NCBI GenBank assembly: GCA_000165345.1
Contig: CM000431.1
Span: 1-64,000 of the forward strand
Direction of reading: 5' to 3'
DNA length: 64,000 bases
Below are positions 12,928-49,200 of the stretch, piece by piece. The notes beneath the pieces were generated by a model. It ran no database searches. It was not told the origin of the DNA and saw nothing but the letters and a program-made list of their open reading frames with translations. Position 1 is the first letter of the stretch, and each line of letters opens with the position of its first letter. The position numbers were made by a program, and so were the translations under genes.

Positions 12928-14254
12928 TTTTAAAAAAAAAAACAATTTAGTTAACCACTAATTTTGGTTAACTAGGCTTAATTTTTGGGTTTTACCCCTA
13001 AAAAAGTATATTAATAATAAATATTAATTTAGTTGGTTTATCTCACAATATTGCGAAGAAAAAACTTTGTTTTGTATTTCGGCTCTCTCATCCAAATTTT
13101 CCAAAGAATAATTTCAAGAAATCCTTTAACATTAAGTCCGGCTCACTATTTCTGAACCCAAAATCCTGAATCGTTAATTTCTCTTGCAATTCTAGTTTGA
13201 ATTATTTACTAATTCTTTGCCAGTACTTTGTTAGAATGTACTTGGAACCTTTCTCAACCTGCTGATATTCTCTCATCAAAAAAGAAAAAAAAGAATATTA
13301 TCTGTTTTTTTTTTTTTTTCTACCTTATCCTCGCCGTAATTTTCTCATTATGTCCTAAAACTCAAATTTTTAAAATAGTGGGGTGGTTTGGCGGCATAAT
13401 ATTCTTTTTTCTTTCAATTTACATGCCTACCTGCCGGAAATATTAAAAACCGTTGTTAAATAATAAATTATTTTAAAATTTTAATAAGTGAATTGTACTA
13501 TTGTGGAATCACTGGTTTATATGTTAGCGTTTACTAATCAAAAAACTCTACCTGAAACTTTTTTATTCTCTCCCTTCCAAACCTCTCCTTTACGCCATCA
13601 AACTAACTAAAAAAAGTACTCAATTTAAACATAGCATTCTTTCTAATACATAGAAATATTAAATGTAATAAATAAATATTAATATAACTCTATTTTTACA
13701 AAGTTTTTAGTTTCTCTTTGGATTTACAATTAATAATGTGCAAGTTTATTTTATCCACTTGTGCTTAAAGTATATTGAACTCAAGTCTTTCGACTGTGAA
13801 ATATTAAAACAATTTAATGGCATAGAAAAGCTTAAATATTATTTAAAACTCATAATAAATAAATAGACACATTATAGATCTTATTCTAGTTATTTGATTA
13901 TTGCTCCATTCAACTCAAAAAAAAAATCAAATAATGGGCATAAATTAATATACAAGACCAGACGCATGCATAAATTAAAATCTAGAATTAGTTTAATAAA
14001 TATTAAAAAGAGACAAAAAGTGAATTAATCAACAAAAATTTTAAATTTAAAGGTTATAATTGGATTTATGATGAAATGTTAAAAGAATTGGTGCATACAA
14101 CTAGAATTTTAAATTAATAGATACTACTTTATCTATAAATAAGTTGATTGCAAATGCATATGTGCAACAATAAAATAGATTATAATAAATAATAACTAGA
14201 AATTAGTTGAGATTATATTAATTATTATCATAAGAAGTGGATATTAAAGAAAAT

Positions 14255-17200
14255 ATGTCGTTATTTGCGACAGTGAGTTTTGCTTTAAGCTTTGGGAAGT
14301 TTAGAAATATTGATTTACTACAGAGTGGGTTTTATAGACTAAGGAGTAGATTATACTTTTTAAATGACGGCGTGGCATATAGCGCTATTCCCAGAAATAT
14401 TATTTATTCTAAACAACAAAAGCTAGATCTAAAGTGGGAAGGAATCTTAGAAGACGGGTCTGTTTTATCTAGACCCTTCCAGATCAACTATGTAGATGAT
14501 GTGGCAGATTTAAATGAGACAATCATATTTACTAGTGATGTGAAGTTGCATGTTCCTAGTACCAAACCTTTTTCATCTTTTTTTAGTGACTCAAGTCAAA
14601 CAGATTCAAACGAAATTTTTCGAAGTACATTTGCAAACAGTCAAGTAAGTATTGCTCCTTTTTTTCTTGAGGTGGATTTGTTTTATTCAGAAAACTTAGA
14701 ACAAATTCTTCCCCTTGATTCAGGATCTATGTCTGAGGAGTCAAATAGTGAAGATTCAGAACATTATCAACCTTCAGATGAAAAATTTTCATCTCTTTGT
14801 TATAATGTCTATAGGATTAATAATGTTGCAAATGGTATTGTGGAATATCTTCCAATAATATTTGATGAGTTTCACTTTTGTAATACAAGTTGTTTGATTC
14901 TAAGCCAGATTACTAGAATCTTTGCTTCTTTTGACTCTCATTATTCTGAAAATAAAACTCAATATATTCCAAGATTTTCTTCAACAAAGCCACTCCCAGT
15001 AATCCCTTCATTTCTACTGTCTACTAGTAAAAACGAAGAAAATTCAGAATTAAGCGATAAGGATCTGTTAAAAAATTGTAATCGAACTTTTAAATATGAT
15101 GAAAATAAAAACTCTCACTCAACAAATGTCAGAAGCAAGGTACAAGTTGGTTCATTTACTATTAGGGGAATGCTTATCCAAAAAATGGCTCAGACTTTTG
15201 TAGAATCTTCTAAAAAATTAAAAGAAGAAGATAATGATAAAACTTCAGATGATTTAAAATTAAACGAGAATTTAGAAGTTTCTACAAAGGAAACAAATGA
15301 GTTACCTGATTTGGCTAATAATAAAGAGTTAAATGATATTCAAGAAACCTTAGAAATATGTGATGATGTAAAGGGTAATGAAGAAAAAGACCAGAATACT
15401 AACCAAAAGGCCATCATTGGTATTGACGAAGTATTTCCATCAATAGTAACTAGAGATCCAATGTTTATTGAATCCTCAAAATTTAGACTTGAGCTCATAT
15501 CATCCTTGACTAATCTTCATCTCCAATTAGCTGCTAATATGCACTATATTACAAAGAAATGCTGTAGCTCGCAAAGAGCCAAATTAATGGGATCATTCTT
15601 GGTTATCCCTAGTTTAGAACTACCAGGTGGATCCAAACTAAATGTTGAGCCTCTTATTAACCTTTCAGAATCCAATTATGAAGAAAATGGTGCTTCTATC
15701 CCGTTTTGTGTAGTAAGAGAAAAAATTGATCAGATTGATGAACATAAAATCTCTAGAATTAGCTCTGAAATTCAGCTTAAAGAAGCAAATGAATTCAAAC
15801 ACTCTCTTACAATAGCAAGCGATGGAAGTTCTATAGGAATTCTTCCAGAACAAAGACTTTCTGATTCTGCTCTATGTTTAGTTAAATTACCAACAACAAT
15901 ATGGGCTTTAACTCCTCTAAACTGGCAGCTCAATTATATTAGAGGAATTACGCCCCCCATATTCAGAAGAAGTCCAACCTCGCATATTGTTACTTCAGAT
16001 CCATTAATATCACATGAGCCAATTTTACCATTCCAAAATGTGATTGAGGCACCTTTTGGAATTGCTCAATATAGTTGCAAGATTAACTTAGAATTGGAGA
16101 AAATTTCGTTTCAAATTTTTGAGACTTGGAATAGATTAGTCTCTATTCTACCTTTTGTGTTACACAAACTCGAACAGACATGTAAAATGGAACACATAAG
16201 GAAGACCATGTTCTTATGGAATGAAACCATTTTTTTTGAGAATCTTTCAATTAATGAATTATATTCTCCATCATTAAAACCAGAACCATCATCAAAATTT
16301 CCAGAATTCTTAGGAAATCGATCATTTCCTATTACACCCCCTGTTGTACTTTCAGTTAATTCGTCTCCTCCATACAATAACTTACCTAATAATGGAGAGC
16401 TTAACAAAAAAAATAGTGGTTTTTTTTCAATATTTCCAATATTAACAGGTGGAGTAGGGCTAAGCTCACAAAATTCAACTGCTTTTGTACTAAAACCTAT
16501 TGATTACTACTCAAAAGTAGCTGATTTACTTAGAAATGATATAGTTTTTAAATCAATACCAACTCCAAATGCAATTGAGGAAGTGTGCCTTCCTCCCTTA
16601 CATGAAATAGCATCCAATTCAGATAACCAGTCAAACACAAAAAATGATGTACTTGATGATAATATGTTAAATAATATTTCAACTGAGCACTTAAAAAGTT
16701 CTAAATACAATGAATGGCTTCCTATTTTATTTATTCAAAGATATACAAAACCTTCAACTTTGATTAATTGCTATAAACACCCAATTTCACCTATATCAAC
16801 AAATTCAGAAATTAACAACTTAATAGTTGACCATTCTAAAGCTATAATTAATAATGGAGTTGGTACAATTACTCATTGTGGACAACTTTGCAGACTTGGG
16901 ATTAATAATGATCCTGCAATCAATGCTAGAAATATAGTTAATAGGAAAATCGAGCAAGAATCCAATAAAACCTTTGGTAGTCGCTGTTTTGACTATGATC
17001 AAAATGTAGAAAAAGAAACTAATCATGACAATGAAACGCCTAAAATACCTATGATTAAGACAGAAACACCATTTTTAGAAAGTAGTAAAGAATTAACAAA
17101 AGATCTTCATATAATGATATTTGTACATGGATTACAAGGCTCTGCATTTGATATGAGAAATGTTAGAAATATAATTTCTCTATATTACCCAGATGTACTG

Positions 17201-17881
17201 TGTTTACTTAGCACATGCAATGAAGATTATACAGATGGCCCAATAGAAGAAATGGGAAAAAGGTTAAGTGATGAAGTTATTGCAGCTGTATCTCCATTTT
17301 CAAAATCTTTAAAAAAATTGTCTTTTGTAGGCCATTCTCTTGGTGGAATTATAATAAGAGCAGCTCTCCCTCATCTTCATATGTTTAGTTCTCAGTTTTA
17401 TTTATATTGGTCCTTAAGCACACCTCATTTGGGATGTATTTCAAACAACTCAAAGCTTATTAATGCAGGCGTATGGATAATGAAAAAATGGAGTAGTTCT
17501 CAATGTATTAGTCAACTTGCACTTTCTGATGCTCCTAATTATGAAGAAACATTTATATACAAACTTGCAACTGAACAATCAGAGTTATTTTCAAAATTTA
17601 AACATATTGTATTTTGTTCTTCTCATCAAGATATGTATGCTCCATATGATAGTGCTAGAGCTGAATACTCTCCAGATGGTCCTTCAGTTTACAAGGTGAT
17701 GGTAGAAAGTTTGCTAAAAAATATTGATCCTTCTCGTATTGTTAAAGTTGATGTTGATTTCCACCTTCCACAGAAAAACCTCGATACTTTTATTGGGAGA
17801 GCCGCTCATATTCAAGTTATTGAAAATCAATTCTTTGTTAAGATCCTAGTTTCTAGATTTCCTGAATGGTTTATTGCCTAA
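14255..17881 (+). CDS. FAM135-like protein: large N-terminal region plus C-terminal DUF676 alpha/beta-hydrolase (putative serine esterase/lipase, GHSLGG)
   Basis: C-terminal IMIFVHGLQGSAFDM...SFVGHSLGGIIIRAAL...INAGVWIMKKW...FIGRAAHIQVIENQFF is collinear with human FAM135A DUF676 as I recall it. ORF-track start 14237 is GTG; first ATG at 14255 (MSLFATVSF...). Confidence 0.8.
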   Translation: MSLFATVSFALSFGKFRNIDLLQSGFYRLRSRLYFLNDGVAYSAIPRNIIYSKQQKLDLKWEGILEDGSVLSRPFQINYVDDVADLNETIIFTSDVKLHVPSTKPFSSFFSDSSQTDSNEIFRSTFANSQVSIAPFFLEVDLFYSENLEQILPLDSGSMSEESNSEDSEHYQPSDEKFSSLCYNVYRINNVANGIVEYLPIIFDEFHFCNTSCLILSQITRIFASFDSHYSENKTQYIPRFSSTKPLPVIPSFLLSTSKNEENSELSDKDLLKNCNRTFKYDENKNSHSTNVRSKVQVGSFTIRGMLIQKMAQTFVESSKKLKEEDNDKTSDDLKLNENLEVSTKETNELPDLANNKELNDIQETLEICDDVKGNEEKDQNTNQKAIIGIDEVFPSIVTRDPMFIESSKFRLELISSLTNLHLQLAANMHYITKKCCSSQRAKLMGSFLVIPSLELPGGSKLNVEPLINLSESNYEENGASIPFCVVREKIDQIDEHKISRISSEIQLKEANEFKHSLTIASDGSSIGILPEQRLSDSALCLVKLPTTIWALTPLNWQLNYIRGITPPIFRRSPTSHIVTSDPLISHEPILPFQNVIEAPFGIAQYSCKINLELEKISFQIFETWNRLVSILPFVLHKLEQTCKMEHIRKTMFLWNETIFFENLSINELYSPSLKPEPSSKFPEFLGNRSFPITPPVVLSVNSSPPYNNLPNNGELNKKNSGFFSIFPILTGGVGLSSQNSTAFVLKPIDYYSKVADLLRNDIVFKSIPTPNAIEEVCLPPLHEIASNSDNQSNTKNDVLDDNMLNNISTEHLKSSKYNEWLPILFIQRYTKPSTLINCYKHPISPISTNSEINNLIVDHSKAIINNGVGTITHCGQLCRLGINNDPAINARNIVNRKIEQESNKTFGSRCFDYDQNVEKETNHDNETPKIPMIKTETPFLESSKELTKDLHIMIFVHGLQGSAFDMRNVRNIISLYYPDVLCLLSTCNEDYTDGPIEEMGKRLSDEVIAAVSPFSKSLKKLSFVGHSLGGIIIRAALPHLHMFSSQFYLYWSLSTPHLGCISNNSKLINAGVWIMKKWSSSQCISQLALSDAPNYEETFIYKLATEQSELFSKFKHIVFCSSHQDMYAPYDSARAEYSPDGPSVYKVMVESLLKNIDPSRIVKVDVDFHLPQKNLDTFIGRAAHIQVIENQFFVKILVSRFPEWFIA

Positions 17882-19611: not shown

Positions 19612-21099
<1,488 letters not shown>

Positions 21100-22027: not shown

Positions 22028-24250
<2,223 letters not shown>

Positions 24251-37072: not shown

Positions 37073-39127
37073 ATGTACGCAAAAGAAGATTTTGGAAATG
37101 CGAATATAAGTCAATTTATTCGACTAAATAACCGGCTAAGAGCTAATGGGTTTTTATCAATACCGTTTCTTCCTGATTTAACTTCTCCTGCTAGATCTCT
37201 TATACTAAATAGAAACCAAGTTGAAGAAGATAATAATGAAGGTACAAATTATTTAAGATACGCAAACCCGGGAGTGAGATTATCAGAAAAATTGGTTCAA
37301 ACCTCAATGATCTCTCAGAATTTAAATGATGTAACTACGCCTCAGAATCTTTCACAAATTGGAGAAACAGAGAGGCAAAATGATAAGTTTGAAATCACTC
37401 CAGGTATTCGTAAGTATACTGATTCTGAATATTCTGGTTTAAACACAGATGATTTGAGAACTGTAGGTTCTATACTACATGGAATTTGTGCTGACAGAGA
37501 TAATTCATTTGAAAATGAACAAAATGTTAATTCTGTAACAGAAATTGCAAGAGAACACTCTGTATCTGGAAGAAATAAGATGGATTTTCCTTTTGATATG
37601 CCGTCAAATTATAGCTCTAAATATGGGATGAAACCTGATGGTAATTTTAGATTAGGGTCAAGTATTGAGCTTTCTTTCACTACTGAACAACCTGAATCCT
37701 TGTCTATGGCAGCTAAACCAGAATCTATTGAAACTAATCAAAGGTTAATAGTTGATGGAAACAAACTCATTTCAACTATTCACAATTTACTATATGAATT
37801 AGAATCTCGAGGTGAACACACTGTTGAAACTATAAACTCTGAAAGGTCACAAAAAAACGGACTTATAGAAAAGTTAAACCTCTTGAGAAGGAAATATGAA
37901 GCCTTAGAGAAAGAGAATGAATCTCTTAGAATGATAAATAGAGTTTTAACCGAAGAAGAACAATCTAATAGAAAAAATAGGGTTCAAGGTAGGGAAACCC
38001 CGCAAGGCTCTGCAATTAGCAAGTTAGAAAGAGAGAAACAGCAACTTCTTGTTGAAAATAGCCGACTAAAACAAGATATTCTAAAGCTTCAAGAGGATGA
38101 TGATAAGTCAAGAGATAAAGCTGATCAATTTTTGAGGTCTGTTAAGAACAATCTGGACAATGAAAGAGATTCTAACAGAGCCAGCACCTTCAACCATACG
38201 GGTACGAGCAGTAATATTAGTGGAACAACCTTAACAACTTTAGAAAAAAAGAAAATTCTTCAATCACACTACCTTTACTCAATAATTGTAGGATTTGAAA
38301 AATCGATCAGCTATTGGAAATTGCAAGCCAACGGACAAAATAACTTAGATTCTAAAAACGGGCAAGACTCATTTGAGGGTAATGAAACTAATTTAGGAAA
38401 TTCAAATGATACTATTTCTGAGAAATCCTTCTTTGAATTTTGTCAAGAAAATAATATTTCCACAAGTGAGTTAATGAAAAGAGACAAGAATCTTTGGACC
38501 AGAGGTCTTTATATGTTACAGAATACTGATAGATCTGAATTAGAAAGCATAGTTAGGTGGTCTTGTAGGCTACTTAATATATCAAACTTTAGAAACATTC
38601 CGATTCAAATTGGACAACTATTAGCCAAAAAGAGTACTTCAGCAACCCCGAAAATCACTCATATTTTCGAAAGTGCTTCATCCAAGAAAATTTCCTCCCA
38701 AAATAATAGCCAAGAAGTCATATCAATTGAACTACATGATCGTTTCTACAACCACTTTAAAACTCTATTTGATGTACTTGATGATCAAGACGTTATCCAA
38801 GCATCTAATGCAATATATATACAACTGAGAGATTTTAAGAAGTTTTTCAAAACTATTTGCTCAACTTTAAGTCTTGATTACAAAACCACCTCTCCCAATG
38901 AATGCCTAAAGATTCTCACTGATCTAATTAACATAAATCACTCAAAGAAAGCTCCAAATACTCAACCTCAGATCCAGTCTTTCCAAGAGAACTCTTCAAA
39001 TGTTCATAATATCATTGAGTCTCTTAAAATTGTTTTAGATGTTGATTCGAATGACCAGATTCTTCCCACTCTAAAGCAACACCTTGAGTCCCAATCTGCT
39101 ATTATTCTTTCTCTCTCAAAGAGCTAA
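37073..39127 (+). CDS. Hypothetical coiled-coil protein, 684 aa
   Basis: ATG at 37073. Central heptad-rich stretch (LIEKLNLLRRKYEALEKENESLRMINRVL...LEREKQQLLVENSRLKQDILKLQEDD). Confidence 0.5.
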   Translation: MYAKEDFGNANISQFIRLNNRLRANGFLSIPFLPDLTSPARSLILNRNQVEEDNNEGTNYLRYANPGVRLSEKLVQTSMISQNLNDVTTPQNLSQIGETERQNDKFEITPGIRKYTDSEYSGLNTDDLRTVGSILHGICADRDNSFENEQNVNSVTEIAREHSVSGRNKMDFPFDMPSNYSSKYGMKPDGNFRLGSSIELSFTTEQPESLSMAAKPESIETNQRLIVDGNKLISTIHNLLYELESRGEHTVETINSERSQKNGLIEKLNLLRRKYEALEKENESLRMINRVLTEEEQSNRKNRVQGRETPQGSAISKLEREKQQLLVENSRLKQDILKLQEDDDKSRDKADQFLRSVKNNLDNERDSNRASTFNHTGTSSNISGTTLTTLEKKKILQSHYLYSIIVGFEKSISYWKLQANGQNNLDSKNGQDSFEGNETNLGNSNDTISEKSFFEFCQENNISTSELMKRDKNLWTRGLYMLQNTDRSELESIVRWSCRLLNISNFRNIPIQIGQLLAKKSTSATPKITHIFESASSKKISSQNNSQEVISIELHDRFYNHFKTLFDVLDDQDVIQASNAIYIQLRDFKKFFKTICSTLSLDYKTTSPNECLKILTDLININHSKKAPNTQPQIQSFQENSSNVHNIIESLKIVLDVDSNDQILPTLKQHLESQSAIILSLSKS

Positions 39128-39379
39128 TTTAGCAATATTTTTTGTTCAAGTTACTCATTTCTTATATATCTACTAATTAATTTTTTTTTTTAATATTTTT
39201 CCTTATACCGGTGTTACGCATGTTTAATTTGATTAATATGCTAAATTCATTAATTGGCGCCAAACCATAAATTAAGATTGCAGGAATGCAGGAAGATAAC
39301 TAAAAATAAGTTGAAAAAATAGGGGAAATTCAAAGTGGCATATTTCAAGGCTGTGAAAGTTTGTAATTAATCAAGAGCC

Positions 39380-40180
39380 ATGGATTTTGAAGATATTCCT
39401 TTTGAGGAAATTATAAGAAAAGAAAAGATAGCTGAGTCATTCGAAAAAAGAAAAAGTGCAGAATCAGAAAAAAAAAATGCCAATGGATCCTACAAATCAT
39501 GCAAAGAATTTGAGAAAAATGATGAAATCGATCAAAGACTCAAAAAATATGGAAGAATTACTTCAAAGAACTCTCCAATGGAAGTATCATCTAGAAGACA
39601 AATTTTACCAGAAAAACTAGAAAATGAAAGAAACTATATCAGAAATAAACATGACAGCTCAAAAAAAGGCAATGATCCTAGATTTAATGACTCTTGTGGA
39701 AAGCTCAACACTGACTTATTCCATAAATCATATGACTTCTTAGATGACATGAGACAAAGAGAATTTAATCAGATCAAGAATACATTAGATTTATACAAAA
39801 TTATGACCAAGTCTAAAGAACTTGGAACATGGAATAAAGTTAAGAAATCATCAAAATTTAAAAACTCTGATGTAAATCATCTTACTCAAGACCAAATTGA
39901 CAATCTCAAACTTAAATATCAGAAACTTGTTTCTGAAAAAGATCATAGAAAAAATCTTTACCTTAAACAGCAAACCATATCGCAACATAGAAAGCAGGAA
40001 CAAACTAAAATTGAATCAGGAAAGAAGCCATTCTTTCTTAAACAAAAAGATATCAATTTATCTATTCAACATGATAAATATAAAAATCTTAATAAAAAAC
40101 AAATATCAATGCTTGAACAAAAAATTAATAGAAAAAATGTCTCCAAGTTTAAACCACCAACTTCTCTTAGAAAAATATAA
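39380..40180 (+). CDS. Lysine-rich probable nucleolar protein, possibly RRP36-like (rRNA processing)
   Basis: ATG at 39380. C-terminal KKPFFLKQKDINLSIQHDKYKNL...KQISMLEQKINRKN resembles the RRP36/DUF947 KKPY(F/Y)LK...kY..Lk pattern (recollection, weak). Confidence 0.4.
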   Translation: MDFEDIPFEEIIRKEKIAESFEKRKSAESEKKNANGSYKSCKEFEKNDEIDQRLKKYGRITSKNSPMEVSSRRQILPEKLENERNYIRNKHDSSKKGNDPRFNDSCGKLNTDLFHKSYDFLDDMRQREFNQIKNTLDLYKIMTKSKELGTWNKVKKSSKFKNSDVNHLTQDQIDNLKLKYQKLVSEKDHRKNLYLKQQTISQHRKQEQTKIESGKKPFFLKQKDINLSIQHDKYKNLNKKQISMLEQKINRKNVSKFKPPTSLRKI

Positions 40181-40302
40181 AAGATTATTACTCTCGAAAT
40201 CCTATATAGTTATTTTTAATTCATCATATTAATCAATTTGAATATATATAAGATTATATACTTTAATATTTCTATAATAGATACTTTTATACCTTCTCAT
40301 TT

Positions 40303-41075
40303 TTATTTCCTTCCGAGAATTCTTCTGAAAAATACATATATATTTGCTAACAATAGTACAAATATTATGAAATATAGCATCAGTCTCTCAATTACTTTCT
40401 GCTTGTATAATGTACTTGCCAATTTACGACTCTCCATGATATTATAATCTATATTATTCAAACCATATTTGCTTCTTGTCAAGTTATCCCTTTGAACTGT
40501 TAAAGTATTCAAAGAATATAATCCTATATGTTGTGTTTCCTGAGCTAGGTTTGCAGATATTCTTAAATTATCTTCATTCCTTTTCATCAAATCTTCTGTA
40601 GAAACTCCCATATTATATTCTTTTGTCGATGGTTTTAAATAATTCTGACCGTCATTACCACTAATGTTTGTACTCATATCCAACTCTTTATTAGAATAGT
40701 AACTACTAGCCATGCTCTCCTCTCTATATGTGTCAAACTTCCTATATATGTCTTCATATACTCTCTGATATCTTTGATACGATTGGTATTCAATCGAATT
40801 CTTAGATAACGTCATAACCTTAAAAAATAGTTAAACAAACTTAAAAATTGGAAATATAGACATTAAATTTAACTTACTTCATCTTTCAGTTGATCCAAAC
40901 ACTTCTTTGCATCCTGAAATCGACGTTCCAATATAGATATTTCATCCTGTGTAAATTTCTCCCCTCTTCCTCCATCTTCAATATTCACACATTTGAGCAC
41001 TAAACGTTCTATTCCTTGTATAACAGACAAAAACTCCTCTTCATATGACACAAAATACTCGGATGCTGACAACAT
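40303..41075 (-). CDS. VTI1: Vti1-like Qb-SNARE, tail-anchored; two exons join(40878..41075, 40303..40818) with a 59-nt intron
   Basis: Exon 1 (MLSASEYFVSYEEEFLSVIQG...LDQLKDE) resembles the Vti1 N-terminal helix; it is followed on the minus strand by GTAAGT at 40877..40872. The intron ends ...TTTTTTAAG at 40819, and exon 2 is in phase 0 (VMTLSKN...). Exon 2 carries a SNARE heptad region and the C-terminal TM MLYFIIFVLLLANIYVFF. The ORF track shows two separate ORFs, 40869..41075 and 40303..40815. Confidence 0.65.
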
Positions 41076-41126
41076 TTATCAATATTGTTTAATACCTATT
41101 TATTCAATAATTTATATTAAGATCAA

Positions 41127-41139
41127 TTCCCGCCAAAAA
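41127..41139. promoter_or_regulatory. E2F-consensus-like TTCCCGCCAAAAA (rc TTTTTGGCGGGAA) ~55 bp upstream of the Vti1 ATG
   Basis: Direct reading. Matches the canonical E2F site TTTSGCGCS/TTTGGCGGGAA. Confidence 0.4.
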
Positions 41140-41834
41140 TGTTTGTATTAATAAACTTTGCATGTATAAGAATTTGTTAAAATAATTATTAATTAAATTA
41201 TTATGAATAGTTCAACTTATATTTCTGATAGTATCCGTAGTCAAACAAAAGAGTATATAATCAACTTACCAAAATATATGAATTAATATTATAAAGAATT
41301 TCAACATTGAAATTTCCCACACTATTAACATTACAATCATAAATGTTTGCCATCTTGTATAGAATATTTGTGCCGTTATATGATCATTATTTTTATTAAT
41401 ATGGATTGAATTAGATCAATGAGTCCTTTCCTTGATTAAACTTGATTTTTATACTTATCCTCAAACAATTATAATGCGTAGTTACCCATAAAATGAAACA
41501 ATAATTTAAAATATTTTAAGCTCCAATTTATATTAACAAACTCTTATTCAAATTTTAGTAAGATAATTAATCGTTAAGCAATCATTTTAAGGGAATTAAA
41601 ATAATAACATTTAATTGAAATCCAGAATTGATATTTTCCGAATTAAAGGTCAATTTTGATTATTTGAAAAATTTTTGAAAATCGATATGAATAAATGATT
41701 GTTAGTACCAATTGAAGACGTTTGTAATTAAAAAAGAATAAATTGTAATTACTTATTAAACAAATATATATGTAATATATTTACAATATATTGATTTCTT
41801 CAATTTCAAACAATTGAAATTTTTTATTAATGAA

Positions 41835-44116
41835 TTAGCATTTTCCATCTTTAGAATCCTTACATTCAAATCCTCCAGGTGTATTTATACAACACTGTGA
41901 TTTACCACAATAATTACCCACTTTACATTCATCTATATCACGGCATGTGAATCCATCTCCTGTATAGCCTTCTGAACATACGCACTCAAATTTACTTAAA
42001 TCATGCGTTGTTTCAAAGATTGAATGTACGTAACATTCCGCATTTTTGGAACATTTGCTACAGACTTCATTCTTAAAGTTTTTCTTGACTTTTTTTGGTA
42101 TCAAAAACATTGGATTATTGAATCTATACTCATCTCTAATCCATTTAGAAATGTGAGATGCTTCATTGCTTAAATCTGATTTATTCATCATAATAGAATG
42201 CATTAAGACGGGTTCTGATGAAATATATTCAATCTCACGATACATATTTGCATCTTTTGATAATGAAATGAAGTATATATCAATATCTTTCTTCAAGCTA
42301 ACGATTCCTGGGCATGTCTTCACAGAAGTACAACCATTAAATCCTGCAGTGATGTATACTATCTTTCTTCTCTTTAATAGCACCTTATTATGATAGCCTC
42401 TTTGATTTGAATGAGAATCAGTACCATTTTGTTGTGCAATAACATTTAATACTCTTTCTGAGTCTTGCTGTGCAACCATACTTAACAATCTATCAACCCT
42501 CATATTATTGTCAGAGCCTTGTAATGTTGATATGAAGCTCGTATGCCCTTGGGTTTTGTTTTGTTCATTAATTGGAACTGACAAAATTTCAGTATTTATT
42601 CCACTCTCGACCAAATTTCTATAAATTACATTTGCAGACAAATTAATTTCTTTCATTTGATCAATATTTGGTACTTTAGACAGATCCATTACTAACGAAA
42701 CTGCATATTTTGGTGGTTCGCTTGTGGTTGTTGTAGTATTTGGATACTCAGTTGTAGTGGTTGTTATATCTGGAATTGTTGTAGTTGTGGTAGTTGTTGG
42801 ATATCCTGTTGTGGATGTGGTTGTTGGATAACCTGTTGTAGAAGTGGTTGTTGGTTGTCCCGTTGTAGAAGTGGTTGTTGGATAACCTGTTGTAGAAGTG
42901 GTTGTTGGATAACCTGTTGTAGAAGTGGTTGTTGGATAACCTGTTGTAGAAGTGGTTGTTGGATATCCTGTTGTAGAAGTAGTTGTTGGATGTTCTGTTG
43001 TAGAAGTGGTTGTTACATTTGGAGCTTTAGTTGTAGTAGTTGTTGGGCTTCCAGTTGTGGTGGCTATTGGACTTCTAGTTGTAGATGTGGTTGTTACATT
43101 TGGAGCTTTAGTTGTAGTAGTTGTTGGGTTTCCAGTTGTAGAAGTGGTTGTTGCATTTGGAGCTTTAGTTGTGGTAGTTGTTGGATTTCCAGTTGTAGAA
43201 GTGGTTGTTGGACTTCTAGTTGTGGATGTGGTAGTGTTTGGACTCCCTGTTGTGGTAGTTGTTGGATATCCTGTTGTGGATGTAGTTGTTACAACTGTAG
43301 TCGTTGTGGTAGTGATTGGAATATTTGGGTATTCTGTTGTTGTGTTGTTGGGAAAGGATAAACTGGATACTCGGTTGTTGTTGTTGTTGGGTATACTGGA
43401 TATTCTGTTGTTGTTGTGGTGGGGTATACTGGATATTCTGTTGTTGTCGTTGTTGGGAAAGGATAAACTGGATACTCTGTTGTTGTTGTGGTTGGGTATA
43501 CTGGATATTCTGTTGTTGTCGTTGTTGGGAAAGGATAAACTGGATACTCTGTTGTTGTTGTGGTTGGGAAAGGATAAACTGGATACTCTGTCGTAGTAGT
43601 TGTTGGAATTGGGTATATTGGATATTCTGTTGTTGTTGTTGTTGGGACTGGGTAAACTGGGTATCCTGTTGTTGTTGATGTCAAATTTAAAATATAGTCA
43701 TATTTGTGGCTATTCCATCCCATTTGGTAAACATTTTTTTGATGATGATTGTAATGATAATGATGGTTTTCCTTTGGTATATAATTAAAATGACTATTAG
43801 TATAAGACCTTTCATCATCGGTTGTATCTATATATTTAGGAGTATATGTATTATAATAAGTGTTATAATATCTATAATTATGGTGGCTTTGATGGTGGTT
43901 GTGTTTATACTTATGACTCTGAGATTCTGCCACCTTTCTATTTAAATTTGACGTACCTTCATCTGTCAAAATTGCATTATTTTCATCATAATCATGTTGA
44001 TTTTCTGGTGAAACCCATGTATCTTGTTCATCAATATCAGAAGCAAAAATAATTGTTAAATTTATCAATAGGAGACCTATTGAGAGAACAAATTTTTTAT
44101 TTAAAACTCCAAACAT
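41835..44116 (-). CDS. Secreted mucin-like glycoprotein with C-terminal EGF-like domains; reading frame broken by a 1-nt frameshift at ~43337-43350 inside an (ACA)n Thr-codon run
   Basis: Upstream ORF 43289..44137: real ATG at 44116, signal peptide MFGVLNKKFVLSIGLLLINLTIIFA, His/Tyr/Asn-rich segment, then ~10 x TTTTTEYPVYP(FP). Downstream, frame +2 is open and encodes (TTTSTTGYP)n, TTTTKAPNVTTT, a globular region and DIDECKVGNYCGKSQCCINTPGGFECKD EGF-like modules, ending at 41835. The joint is ACAACACAACAACAG versus ACAACAACAACAACAG in sister repeats. Confidence 0.65.
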
Positions 44117-44657
44117 TAGGAACCGTAAAAAAATCAACTATCTTTTTTTCTAGTTTCCAATTTGAAATTTTACTTAGTTTATTTCCGCATGTAGTTTTTT
44201 TGTTTTTTTAATACCGCAATGCATGTGGATGGCTTTTTTTGTCAATTATAAATAATTACGTGTCAAAAGCTACATGCACATTGCATACATGCAAATGCTT
44301 TACGCAATTATAGAGGTGCAAATCCCCATGTGGACAAAAAATTGAATTAAACTAGATCAAAATAAATAGAAAAAAAAATATACTTGAATTCGGAAATATC
44401 TAATTAAGAATAGTCAAACTAATAAAAAAATCAAATAAAGGTTAGCTATAAATGTTAAGTAGTATATAATAATAAACATCAAAATACGTGTTTAAATGCG
44501 AATGAAATATGATTATGCTCAATTTCAACCTTTCTTGTAAATAGAAATACTGTTAAATACGATGATTCAATTAAAAATAATAATTAAGCAAACTTATAAT
44601 TCTTTAATATTTGATATATACAATATTGATGTTGAGTGATATAATTAGTTGTTTATT

Positions 44658-45866
44658 TCAGGAACTTTTTGGAAGACACCATTGGTAAAAATTCAAAGCA
44701 CCATCCCATTGAGCAGTGAGAATGATTCCAGGAGATCCCCCTAGATTCGAAACTAGTCTGATTTCTGATCTGGTATCAGGAGTATGAAATTCAAGTACAC
44801 TGTCAAATAAAGGAAGGGTGATACATCTAAGATGCCCATTATTTTGGCCCATCATTAAGATATGTTTAGCGTCTGCAGTAACAGTCCCATCCATGCAAAG
44901 CGCAGGAGAACCTAGAGATTTTCTAAAAGTTTCCTCACCTGTAGGTGAAATAACACGAATTACACCTTGCAAACTACATAGAACAAGATGATTTTCATAC
45001 TCGAGTACTGACATAATAGGTCCTCCATCAAATATAATTTCCCTAACTACTTGTAAAGTAATTAGATCCACAATCTGAACAATACCGCCTCCACAAACCC
45101 AAAGATGAGGAGATGCATCCTGAATTTGGCATTGAGGTTGTCCCATTGCGCCAGCTGAATTACCTTTATACGGAAAATATTTAAGACACTTTATATGCTC
45201 TTTAGCCTGAATCTGTGCAGAAATTATAAAAGTACCAGAAGCTTGATCAAATTTCCAAAATACTATCTTTCCACCCCAACAAGCAGAAACGAGTATATTG
45301 TCAATTATTAAAAGTTGATGTATTTCTTGGTTATGCCCAACTAAATCTGTAAAATTCCCTGTAGGCTTGTGAAATGCCCTAATTGTGCCATTAATTAGTC
45401 CACAAAATAGTACATCCCCATAAATCAAGCAACTACAAACCTCTGCACTGCAATTAATTGCTGAATCCATTTTTACTGAAAGCTGAGTTGCTCCACTAAC
45501 ATCATTCTGAAACTTGTTCTGATAGTTTCTTCTACGATGATTACTTCCCCTTTCAGGCTCGGTTGTCATAACATCCTTATCTGCAGGTCTAATTATCCAT
45601 CTCTTCAATTGACCATCGCACCCCCCTGTGAAAAGTTCAAGCTCTCCCGTAGGTAAAGGAGAAGAAATTGCACACCTAATACCTCCAAAATGAGCCTTTT
45701 GTATTTGTGCAACTTGCCTTAAAATATGTGAGTAATTACAATTCTGGCCAAATTTACAATTACCTTGTTGAACAAAATGTCGGCAAATCTCTGAGACTTT
45801 CGTATTGCTTCCTCCACTAGATGAGCCGCCATGTCCACCTTTGCCTCCCTTCCAACGGCCTCTCAT
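44658..45866 (-). CDS. CCCH zinc-finger / WD40-repeat protein
   Basis: Gly-rich N-terminus MRGRWKGGKGGHGG; C-x8-C-x5-C-x3-H (CRHFVQQGNCKFGQNCNYSH); then WD-repeat-like blocks (GH...WD spacing). Confidence 0.75.
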   Translation of the reverse strand: MRGRWKGGKGGHGGSSSGGSNTKVSEICRHFVQQGNCKFGQNCNYSHILRQVAQIQKAHFGGIRCAISSPLPTGELELFTGGCDGQLKRWIIRPADKDVMTTEPERGSNHRRRNYQNKFQNDVSGATQLSVKMDSAINCSAEVCSCLIYGDVLFCGLINGTIRAFHKPTGNFTDLVGHNQEIHQLLIIDNILVSACWGGKIVFWKFDQASGTFIISAQIQAKEHIKCLKYFPYKGNSAGAMGQPQCQIQDASPHLWVCGGGIVQIVDLITLQVVREIIFDGGPIMSVLEYENHLVLCSLQGVIRVISPTGEETFRKSLGSPALCMDGTVTADAKHILMMGQNNGHLRCITLPLFDSVLEFHTPDTRSEIRLVSNLGGSPGIILTAQWDGALNFYQWCLPKSS

Positions 45867-46247
45867 TTCTTAATTAGGACTTTTAGCTCGTAAACACCAG
45901 TCAGGAAATATAAGGCTTAGGATCCAAATAGATCCCTATCTCTAAATTATAACCAATCTTCCAATCTACCTTAACGATTTAAAAAAATAAGTAACTCGTA
46001 CACTAGAGCCAATACCAGATGAAACCCTCCCCAAAAGTTGTTTCTTTTCCATTCAAACCTACCTAAAATGTAAAAATCAAAATGACTATTTTCCAAACAC
46101 CAAAATGTTAATGAAACTCCTCTCAGTTCCGACCAAGAAAATTTTTTATTTTATTTATATTTTTCTAAAAAAACAAGGCATTATAAATACAGCCACCATA
46201 CTGTCTCTAACGTACTTTTGGGCGGGCTATCCTATTTTAGTTTAATG

Positions 46248-49200
46248 CTAGATTACTACTTGTTTTCCAAGGTAAAATCTTCTACTATTATCAGATAGTG
46301 TAAAATATGGATAAGAATATGGACGAGAGTTAGAGCATCCGAAGTTAATACTTGGAAGCTTTAACAGTCCGTTTGTTAGAGGAACTACCCTAAACTCTAG
46401 CTTAATTTTTGACCCAGGTTTAGCTTCTATATAACCATTTCTAGCTCCAATAAACCACCAGCATCCCTTATCTTCTGAATCTTCATCTCCAAAGTAGTTT
46501 AAACAATATGAAAATGTTTCTTCTTTTTGAAATGTATAATTCAGGTAAATAATCAATGGAAACTCCGAATCAACTTTTGAATACGAGGGGTGTTCAACAT
46601 GGTCTAAACTTAATCCATCTAGACTTGTTTCTAATAAATTGTCTGTGGAATGTGTGGATTTTCTCAATGAAATAAAATTGTACAAAGTTTCCATTGGAAT
46701 TTGGAAAGGACCTGAAATAGATAACTTTGTTCTTTCTTCTTTTGGTAGGCTAATTGTTGATATTAAGATTTGAGGAGTTAACACCTTTTGAAGTTCAGTT
46801 TTCGGAACTATCCATATCAATTTTAGAGGTCTTGAATTAGATTCAATAATCAATGGATGAGAAAGAGTATATTCACGAATTGAATATAAATCTCCCAAAT
46901 CTTGAAAATTTTCAATTGTTCTTGGTTTTAATTCTACTGGTGCCATGATTCCAAATAAATCTGAGCTTTCCAGATCTTTTGGAAGCATGGTAATGATCTT
47001 TTCTACCAAAACTCTTTTACAAGTTGCTTCAAAAAGTAATTCAAAGTAATAAAATGGTAAGCTATAATGATCTAGATTTGGAACTGGTTGAATATTTTTC
47101 AAATCTACTTGTGGTCCTACTTGGAAAACAAAATTATGTCTAGTACAAACTTCTTTGTCTTGACCTTTAATACTTGCAATTAAATTTAAACTAAAATTTA
47201 CTTCAGTTGACGTTTTCATTGGAGACATATCAAACATTATTGGTGTTTGAATTATACACTCACTTGAAAAAGACGGAAGTTTAATCAATTTTTGATTTAT
47301 TTCTGGTTTTAAAATACTACTGGACTCCATACCATCTAGCTGTACTAATTCCACTTCATCAGTAAATACTTGTATTGATTCAGTTTCAGATTCTTGAAAA
47401 CTCAGAGTTACTTCCATATCAACATTGTATATTTGAAACCAATCCCTTTCTATTTCCACTGATATTCTATATAACTTCTTTTCTCCTGTATTTGTGCTCA
47501 ACAAATTCCTTGAAGCAGATTCAGGAAGATTTGATTTCTGTATTATATCTCTAAACTGAATTTCCATACTAATCATTTCTGATAAATTTTTAATCCCAAA
47601 AGAATATAACGTGGTCCACTTTTTGAGAGGATTCCAAGCGTTATCTCTATTACATTCTAATTCATCCTTACTTGTTTTAGTAATTATACCTGAATTTATA
47701 GGTTTCTTCCCAGATAAGATTCCTAAATTTGTTTCAAATATCTGAAATTCTGAAATAACTTTTGGTAATATATGAGGTGAAGGTAATGTGCCCAAAGGAA
47801 TTACCCAAAGGAAGTTAATTGGAATGCTGAAACTTGTTCTATCAGATAACCCAATAGAATCTATAAAGAAGCTAGATTCTCCTTCTTCACAGAAAATATC
47901 TAGTTCTATTTTGTTTAACCCTGGCTCCAAAATGACTTTGCCTTTTGAAGATTCAGTAATCGTATTTTCAAGTAGTATCCACCTAGTGCCATTCACTCTC
48001 AACCAAACAGAGCCAAAATAAACAGGAGAAGAAAGTCCAATGTAAATTAATAATATACAACGCGATGGAATCCCAGGAACTGCAAACTTGTGTATCCATG
48101 AATTCGGAGGTGTAACAAGACATTGAGTAGAATCTTCATTTTTTGGACTGAGAGCTAATTTTGGGCTCGCTGAAGCAGATTTTTTTGAATTAGATTTACT
48201 TGCTTCAGTAATCACCCAATTTGATGGCCCTGGAGTATTTACAGTAATGACCTTAGAGGGAGACAGGTTTTCCTCGACCTTTATTGCATTATCTAAAGGA
48301 GAAGATGGTATTTTAAGTCTTTCACTATTCTTTAATGAACTACCATGAACACTTGTACTTGTTGGAACCCTTTCTCGGTCATCTAAATTGTTCATTTCCG
48401 ATATTCCATTGGTTTTTTCAGAGTATAGACTCCCATTAAATGAACTTGCTTTGCTTTTACTTTTGGAGCTACTTCCATAAGAACTACTTCCCCATTTAAA
48501 CCCTGTAACAATTTCCCACATCCATTGTCTAGGCGAACCATCCTTTCTTTTATTTGAACCCATTGGATTTGAGATATTACTTCTTCCTTCTCTAACATGT
48601 TCAAGCTCTGAGTTAGAAAATGAAAAAGATCGCTCATGTTTAGAGCTTTTTTTTTGAAACCAACTATTATAATTGCTATTTGATCCTGATCTGTTAGAAC
48701 TCTTCATTTTTTGGGTGCTTAAATTATTTCCAGCTTCTTGTTGTTCTATTCTTTGTGATTCCATATTTTTCCCTATCTCTTGTTTTTCCATTTGTCCTAT
48801 TCTCGATCCAATATCTTCAGAAGGTTTTATTTGTTGTCCAGAAGACCCAAGGGGACTTTGTAGTGGTGAAAGGACATTTGGAGATTTTAAGAATAATCTT
48901 CCACTTGGTCTTAGTATTTCATGAAAAACATAGAAATACCCTTGTACTGGTTTTAATGGATCTAATAAACCGCAACAAGGTAAAGCTTTAGTAGGTAATC
49001 TGATTAGCTTTCCTCCTCCTAAAAGAGCCATCAGGATTTGTCTTTCAACAATCTTGAGAGTAACTCCTTTGAATGATTTTGTTTGTAAGTCATAAGATTC
49101 CAAAGCCTCATTTTTATCTGTTGTTTGATTTCCAAAATTAATAAAAGCTCTCATCTTAAGTTTTGGAATTTCCTTAGTTTTTTCTGAACCGTATTCTGGA

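Follow-up and report, generated by a model that had tools for sequence, protein, structure and literature searches.

A single-nucleotide frameshift in a Thr-rich gene of Cryptosporidium parvum chromosome 3, very probably cgd3_190, is best explained as a residual assembly error in a repeat array

The DNA analyzed here (the window) comprises the first 64,000 nucleotides (nt) of contig CM000431.1 of the Cryptosporidium parvum assembly GCA_000165345.1 and is AT-rich, with a GC content of 30.7%. Between positions 41835 and 44116 its minus strand carries a gene for a putatively secreted, Thr-rich protein with EGF-like modules, whose open reading frame (ORF) is split in two. Reading the ORFs reproduced both frames described in an initial annotation of the sequence: the frame starting with the ATG at 44116 is open to a premature TAA at 43291-43289, and a second one continues without interruption from 43700 to the stop codon at 41837-41835. 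The span from ATG to stop as assembled is 2282 nt (2 mod 3). We placed the shift at 43343/43344, where the window reads CCAACAAC-ACAACAACAG and is one A short, whereas three other C. parvum assemblies (GCA_048859185.1, IOWA-ATCC and GCA_031892065.1) and the neighboring repeat units read CCAACAACAACAACAACAG. The tract thus measures 18 nt in the window (CCAACAACACAACAACAG) and 19 nt elsewhere. With one A restored, a single ORF of 2283 nt encoding 760 amino acids results, and the TTTTTEYP repeat runs on across the frame switch. The truncated product as assembled has 275 residues; exact look-ups of this product and of the 284-residue downstream ORF matched no record. The earlier view that the two frames belong to one gene is borne out by the repaired ORF, which matches an intact C. 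parvum model, and all of the parts proposed for the protein (signal peptide, His/Tyr/Asn block, two repeat families, globular region and two EGF modules) are present. The features of the locus are as follows.

41835..44116, minus strand: whole gene, very probably cgd3_190; 2282 nt assembled, 2283 nt (760 residues) with the A restored
43343..43344, minus strand: 1-nt deletion causing the frameshift, missing A in CCAACAAC[A]ACAACAACAG; private to the window
43373..43373, minus strand: synonymous A>C on the gene strand (ACA>ACC), private to the window by comparison with other copies
43421..43421, minus strand: synonymous A>C on the gene strand (CCA>CCC), private to the window by comparison with other copies
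43289..43291, minus strand: premature TAA, met only through the frameshift (ORF reading)
44042..44116, minus strand: signal-peptide-like N-terminus MFGVLNKKFVLSIGLLLINLTIIFA, residues 1-25 (hydrophobicity)
43679..44041, minus strand: His/Tyr/Asn-rich block, residues 26-146, 38% H+Y+N (composition)
43311..43687, minus strand: array 1, TTTTTEYPVYP(FP), 10 units of 33/39 nt (unit count)
42793..43290, minus strand: array 2, 27-nt units encoding TTTSTTGYP / TTTTKAPNV (Tandem Repeats Finder, period 27 x 18.2 copies)
Residues 147-466, minus strand: the two Thr-rich arrays together, 62-75% S+T+P
42072..42710, minus strand: globular domain predicted to resemble a vWA / integrin I-domain, residues ~467-685 (predicted structure)
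41943..42062, minus strand: EGF-like module 1, 6 Cys, not of the Ca-binding type (Pfam EGF_3, EGF and cEGF matches)
41838..41939, minus strand: EGF-like module 2, 6 Cys, DIDEC...CINTPGGFEC, reaching the C-terminus (motif read directly)

Copies of the locus were retrieved by exact-match anchors on the neighboring genes from seven NCBI assemblies and many Logan short-read assemblies. Gene order is the same in the seven assemblies, with a WD40/CCCH gene upstream and SNARE-like and RRP36 genes downstream. Upstream, at 19612-21093, the window contains an S-adenosylhomocysteine hydrolase gene, which we take to be cgd3_80. The repaired 760-residue product corresponds to KAL5369365.1 (P0010; C. parvum, 751 residues), from which it differs only by one extra 9-residue TTTSTTGYP unit. 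Its non-repetitive C-terminal half matches Cryptosporidium entries named 'latent transforming growth factor beta binding protein', with 99% identity to that of C. hominis TU502, and KAL5369365.1 shares a 90% cluster with the proteins matched by this half. Orthologues are annotated either under the 'latent TGF-beta binding protein' name or as 'Fibrillin/EGF-like calcium-binding...', and include the C. hominis fragments XP_665466.1 and XP_665439.1 and the C. canis protein KAJ1606621.1 (660 residues). From gene order and a published description (PMC7718795), rather than from an accession match, the gene is very probably cgd3_190 of C. parvum chromosome 3. It is thus a gene that is already known and annotated, and it is length-polymorphic. 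The full-length copies compare as follows.

GCA_048859185.1 (C. parvum): 2256 nt, in frame, 751 residues
GCA_031892065.1 (C. parvum): 2346 nt, in frame, 781 residues
Two C. hominis assemblies: 2379 nt, in frame, 792 residues
Two C. hominis assemblies: 2496 nt, in frame, 831 residues
IOWA-ATCC, GCA_015245375.1: 2344 nt, broken, annotated as 770 residues
Window copy: 2282 nt, broken, 760 residues if repaired

Six other full-length copies are therefore in frame, two from C. parvum and four from C. hominis (GCA_001593465.1, GCA_001593475.1, GCA_002223825.1 and GCA_001483515.1), and the other full or partial copies that reach the shift site are without exception in frame there (9/9). The CpBGF assembly (GCA_035232765.1) would, by elimination only, carry the 781-residue allele. 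What sets the window apart from all cgd3_190 orthologues is the 1-nt deletion together with the two synonymous A>C changes, which occur in no other copy.

Nearly the whole window was compared with four NCBI C. parvum assemblies and ~14 short-read runs. Outside the telomere tract, over the ~58 kb for which at least two other sources were available, the only differences private to the window are the deletion at 43343/43344 and the A>C changes at 43373 and 43421; differences also listed at 42954-42967 reflect alignment ambiguity at the indel of a 27-nt unit. All three private changes fit within 80 nt, for which we obtained P ~5e-6 at the genome-wide divergence between the window and GCA_048859185.1 (L003). 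Array 1 of the window equals that of L003 unit for unit, save these three single-base changes. Each of them amounts to the loss of an A at the boundary of an A/C run, offset in two cases by an extra C. Gene conversion from another repeat unit was considered as their source and ruled out: k-mers of the private variants are absent from all other repeat units and copies.

The shift site lies where short reads fail. Assemblies of short reads at k=31 cannot cross the stretch that holds it: contigs end at ~43540-43560 on the 5' side and at ~42813-42818 on the 3' side, leaving the site in the unspanned stretch between. Elsewhere, the window differs from the SRR5007564 short-read contigs by four substitutions and no indels in 56,913 nt, and the absence of indels indicates that the assembly is clean or well polished where short reads map uniquely. 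How the assembly errs where it is unpolished can be seen in its telomere tract. Only 47% of the units in the ~2.65 kb CCTAAA telomere tract (window 1-2650) are perfect, and the deviations are mostly of run length (CCTAAAA 15%, CCCTAAA 7%, CCCCTAAA 4%), with scattered G insertions; against two other assemblies, 8 positions differ in ~270 nt (within 2397-2506). Noise of this kind is the pattern expected of Nanopore data, and it suggests that the assembly is of the Nanopore type and that short reads did not correct its ends. An unannotated Nanopore assembly of C. parvum built with Canu and Pilon (GCA_019844115) has both telomeres of chromosome 3.

A precedent is provided by IOWA-ATCC, which is PacBio-based and was polished with iCORN2 and Pilon (PMC8744675). 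At this locus (L004:6751-9094) its sequence would equal that of GCA_031892065.1 were it not for two single-nucleotide deletions in array 1, which lie 32 nt apart and change TATACCCAAC to TATA-CCAAC (CCC>CC); its 770-residue model implies a 31-nt pseudo-intron that bridges both. As in the window, private 1-nt deletions at short base runs in array 1 break the ORF of an assembly that is otherwise nearly error-free. The deletions themselves are different ones, located at gene nt 797 and 829 (CCC>CC) in IOWA-ATCC and at 773 (AA>A) in the window. We also observed that a 227-residue gene has been called antisense within the IOWA-ATCC arrays (L004:7189-7942), which is probably spurious; equivalent antisense ORFs lie inside the window arrays at 42855-43361 and 42952-43596.

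Downstream of the shift, 1.5 kb of sequence contains no further defect, and the encoded protein is 100% identical to that of intact alleles. Compared with C. hominis, this region has a ratio of non-synonymous to synonymous substitution rates (dN/dS) of 0.07, with 13 synonymous and four non-synonymous changes, and is under purifying selection.

Taken together, the clustered private changes, the unspanned stretch, the telomere noise, the IOWA-ATCC precedent and the purifying selection favor an uncorrected consensus or polishing error in a long-read assembly of the Nanopore type as the origin of the 1-nt deletion that splits the ORF, a reading to which we assign a probability of roughly 0.78. The error would have fallen in a repeat array beyond the resolution of short reads, the gene would be intact in the parasite, and a product of ~760 residues would be expected. 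The initial annotation had left open whether a long-read indel in low-complexity DNA or a pseudogenising or phase-variable lesion was at hand; the former is the better supported, whereas the loss of one nucleotide in a triplet run, the other copies being in frame and the intact downstream region speak against the latter.

Several points weigh on the opposite side. The base count at 43343/43344 is judged by comparison with other assemblies. The shift site is ~20 nt from the unique inter-array segment, and anchored 150-nt Illumina reads should in principle correct it. The rest of both arrays (~800 nt) is without a private single-base change, meaning that the errors would be clustered and not evenly spread. 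Finally, the window is IOWA-type at nearly all single-nucleotide polymorphism sites over 60 kb except in a patch at 38603-46392, where sites 41414 and 44922, the ACA indel at 42780-42782 and the unit number of array 1 (43344 region) show non-IOWA alleles (those of GCA_048859185.1 and the DRR runs). This patch, centred on cgd3_190, could stem from recombination or introgression between lines or from divergence between IOWA sub-lines; the window allele is in any case distinct from that of other IOWA-type assemblies, a local haplotype that could carry mutations of its own.

We regard as unlikely the possibility that the frameshift is a real and recent mutation in the isolate or laboratory line, leaving only a 275-residue product with the signal peptide, the His/Tyr/Asn block and part of the mucin region, and with the vWA-EGF half lost. 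The base is, after all, missing from the assembled sequence, no error is detectable elsewhere in ~57 kb of unique sequence of the assembly, and the site adjoins unique sequence, where polishing should succeed; yet a real mutation would require that three point changes, independent and untemplated, arose within 80 nt while the lineage shows no other private change over 58 kb. The window is set apart by its allele at this locus, tandem arrays are prone to mutation, and the gene is known for its indel polymorphism (PMC7718795). Nevertheless, secondary decay downstream is lacking, the six other full-length copies are intact, and another long-read assembly, IOWA-ATCC, has evident 1-nt errors in the same array. 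A pseudogene is not supported, the downstream 1.5 kb being open, identical in protein sequence to intact alleles and constrained at a dN/dS of 0.07. If the truncation were real, it would represent a natural knock-out of a conserved vWA-EGF mucin adhesin in a viable IOWA-type line, implying that the vWA/EGF half is dispensable at least in calf or laboratory passage; a real deletion with its accompanying substitutions would also point to clustered, error-prone mutation beside a repeat-unit indel.

An artefact could also have arisen through heterogeneity, if the oocyst population were a mixture of 760-type and 781-type alleles and the long-read consensus were chimeric at the allele junction. IOWA lines are calf-passaged populations, which would favor such a mixture, as would the IOWA-type character of the window everywhere but in the patch around the gene and the position of the private changes next to the 66-nt (two-unit) indel that separates the window allele from that of IOWA-ATCC and GCA_031892065. 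We consider it very improbable all the same, as array 1 of the window is exactly the L003 array but for the three changes, and the private variants are not intermediate between the two allele types. Still less credible is that the parasite bypasses or exploits the shift. Phase variation might be suggested by a review-type statement on contingency genes near Cryptosporidium telomeres, but slippage in an (ACA)n triplet tract gives 3-nt changes; a phase-variable contingency locus is not supported, there being no homopolymer or non-triplet repeat at the shift, no other copy out of frame there and, between intact alleles, no indel other than in multiples of three. Programmed ribosomal frameshifting was rejected, inspection of the site having shown no slippery heptamer of the form X_XXY_YYZ. 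Although 15 frame-restoring GT..AG pairs of at least 128 nt can be drawn, such introns would be only 59% AT and would remove repeats that form part of the coding sequence of intact alleles, for which reason a frame-restoring intron was rejected. Some database models begin at MDLSK, as though the C-terminal half were a gene of its own; this methionine, the first of the downstream ORF, lies inside strand beta-1 of the predicted vWA-like fold and comes without a signal peptide, which excluded a separate downstream gene; in draft assemblies, the models starting there fall at contig breaks or are split models.

Tandem Repeats Finder recovered both arrays, array 1 with a period of 39 x 9.6 copies (43326-43681). 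The content of S+T+P is 62% in array 1 and 75% in array 2. The repeats had been called near-identical at the DNA level, which does not hold overall: units match at only 76-84%, and identity is confined to subsets. The predicted length polymorphism, by contrast, was found, with intact alleles of 751, 781, 792 and 831 residues that differ by indels of 3, 27, 66 and 117 nt, every one a multiple of three. In array 2, the polymorphisms are an in-frame 27-nt unit (~42954-42980) and the ACA indel (~42780-42782). The length variation found among the copies matches the published report of insertions in cgd3_190 in 5 of 9 C. parvum genomes, in which the gene is indel-polymorphic (PMC7718795).

In at least three species, draft assemblies are interrupted by the same arrays. 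Orthologue models that start at MDLSK (264-286 residues), or N-terminal 'partial' models, occur at contig breaks or as split models in the C. hominis TU502, C. ubiquitum and C. canis drafts. Fragmentary public models of this kind are P0002, P0004, P0018, P0021 and P0011 (from C. ubiquitum, C. canis, a divergent species and C. hominis TU502), with the N-terminal partials on separate contigs. The end-to-end architecture is nevertheless the same in C. canis P0012 (660 residues) and in the more distant P0017 (625 residues), whose globular part is 57% identical.

The N-terminus of the repaired protein is predicted from its hydrophobicity to be a signal peptide. Residues 4-29, following a KK motif, form the only hydrophobic segment (Kyte-Doolittle window 19, above 1.6) and none is present at the C-terminus, so that the protein would be anchorless; conservation of this N-terminus extends to C. 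canis P0012 and to P0017. The His/Tyr/Asn-rich block that follows gave no Pfam match and is kept in C. hominis, C. canis, C. ubiquitum (cubi_00830) and P0017. The Thr-rich arrays would form an extended, length-variable stalk of the mucin type, presumably O-glycosylated, and the vWA-EGF head would sit at the end of this glycosylated stalk.

What had been noted simply as a globular region is indeed present and, from its predicted structure, would adopt a vWA/I-domain fold that sequence models miss. The AlphaFold2 model, built from a 7-sequence alignment, reached a pTM of 0.70 with a core pLDDT of 80-92, and the top ~50 Foldseek matches to it were all vWA/I-domains, including those of Plasmodium falciparum TRAP and Toxoplasma gondii MIC2. 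The domain has no Pfam match, no VWA family being returned at E <= 1, and hhalign against an alphaM I-domain sequence gave a probability of 0.1. By manual alignment, the beta-1 loop reads DLSKV, with Val in place of the third Ser of the canonical DxSxS and invariant in seven orthologues, and the beta-4 loop reads ITAG in place of ITDG; the metal-ion-dependent adhesion site (MIDAS) is therefore probably degenerate. A relationship to FtsZ/tubulin was dismissed: a profile of the domain run against PDB sequences yielded nothing beyond a weak FtsZ match to 1w5f (E 0.018) on an ITAGF-G motif, which was judged a chance one. We note in this connection that the residues KIVYITAGFNGCTS (window ~42340-42370, minus strand) contain an invariant motif, VYITAGFNGCTS, which weakly resembles VFITAGFGGGTGTG of 1w5f and lies within a beta-strand-loop element.

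The two EGF modules span residues 686-760, and their 12 Cys residues are invariant in seven orthologues. Two modules of the Ca-binding type had been proposed. The number is correct, but the Ca-binding consensus is read in module 2 only, and EGF_CA scores of 16.7-18.4 bits remain below the gathering score of 27; cEGF passes, with 27.8-27.9 bits against a Pfam gathering score of 26.6.

Comparison with better known proteins sets this architecture apart. In contrast to the TRAP/MIC2 adhesins, the window protein has no thrombospondin repeat, transmembrane helix or cytoplasmic tail: Pfam found no TSP_1 match, and no transmembrane segment is predicted beyond the signal peptide. Its MIDAS appears degenerate (DxSxV, TAG), a mucin stalk precedes the domain and EGF modules follow it, and no sequence similarity was detectable. 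The mucin-like glycoproteins of Cryptosporidium, gp900, gp40/15 and Muc4/Muc5, likewise have a signal peptide, Thr-rich arrays and length polymorphism between isolates; to our knowledge they lack a vWA-like domain and EGF modules. With metazoan LTBP and fibrillin the protein shares one EGF module with a Ca-binding consensus, and metazoan EGF-repeat proteins are the best matches of its C-terminal half outside Cryptosporidium. Pfam found no TB (8-Cys) domain in the protein and there are only two EGF modules, so that the 'LTBP' name is misleading and reflects EGF similarity; a search of the Cryptosporidium literature for 'latent transforming growth factor' returned nothing useful. Judged from its architecture, from which adhesion, glycosylation and location are all deduced, the product is most likely a secreted adhesive or matrix glycoprotein. 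It has been called a microneme protein without direct evidence (PMC7718795).

Elsewhere in the window, product lengths differ between assemblies for the genes at 2886-6047 (1053 vs 1067 residues), 14237-17881 (1214 vs 1208 residues, DUF3657/DUF676) and 22028-24250 (740 vs 736 residues), and short-read contigs are interrupted near 5730-5793 and 23147. These look like additional cases of repeat polymorphism that preserves the frame. On the minus strand at 40303-41075, adjacent ORFs of 170 residues (with a weak Sec20/SNARE-like match) and 68 residues correspond to one 237-residue product in other assemblies; the split looks like an ordinary short intron and not a frameshift.

The apparently split mucin is thus one known gene, and to describe its frameshift in terms of pseudogenisation, phase switching or two genes would be premature without confirmation at the level of reads. 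Its array corrupts or breaks gene models in at least five assemblies from four species (the window, IOWA-ATCC, C. hominis TU502, C. ubiquitum and one C. canis), which makes ortholog tables and calls of 'species-specific genes' unreliable for this gene. The in-frame variation in its repeat number might serve as a typing marker, and the predicted vWA/I-domain fold makes the protein a plausible adhesin candidate.

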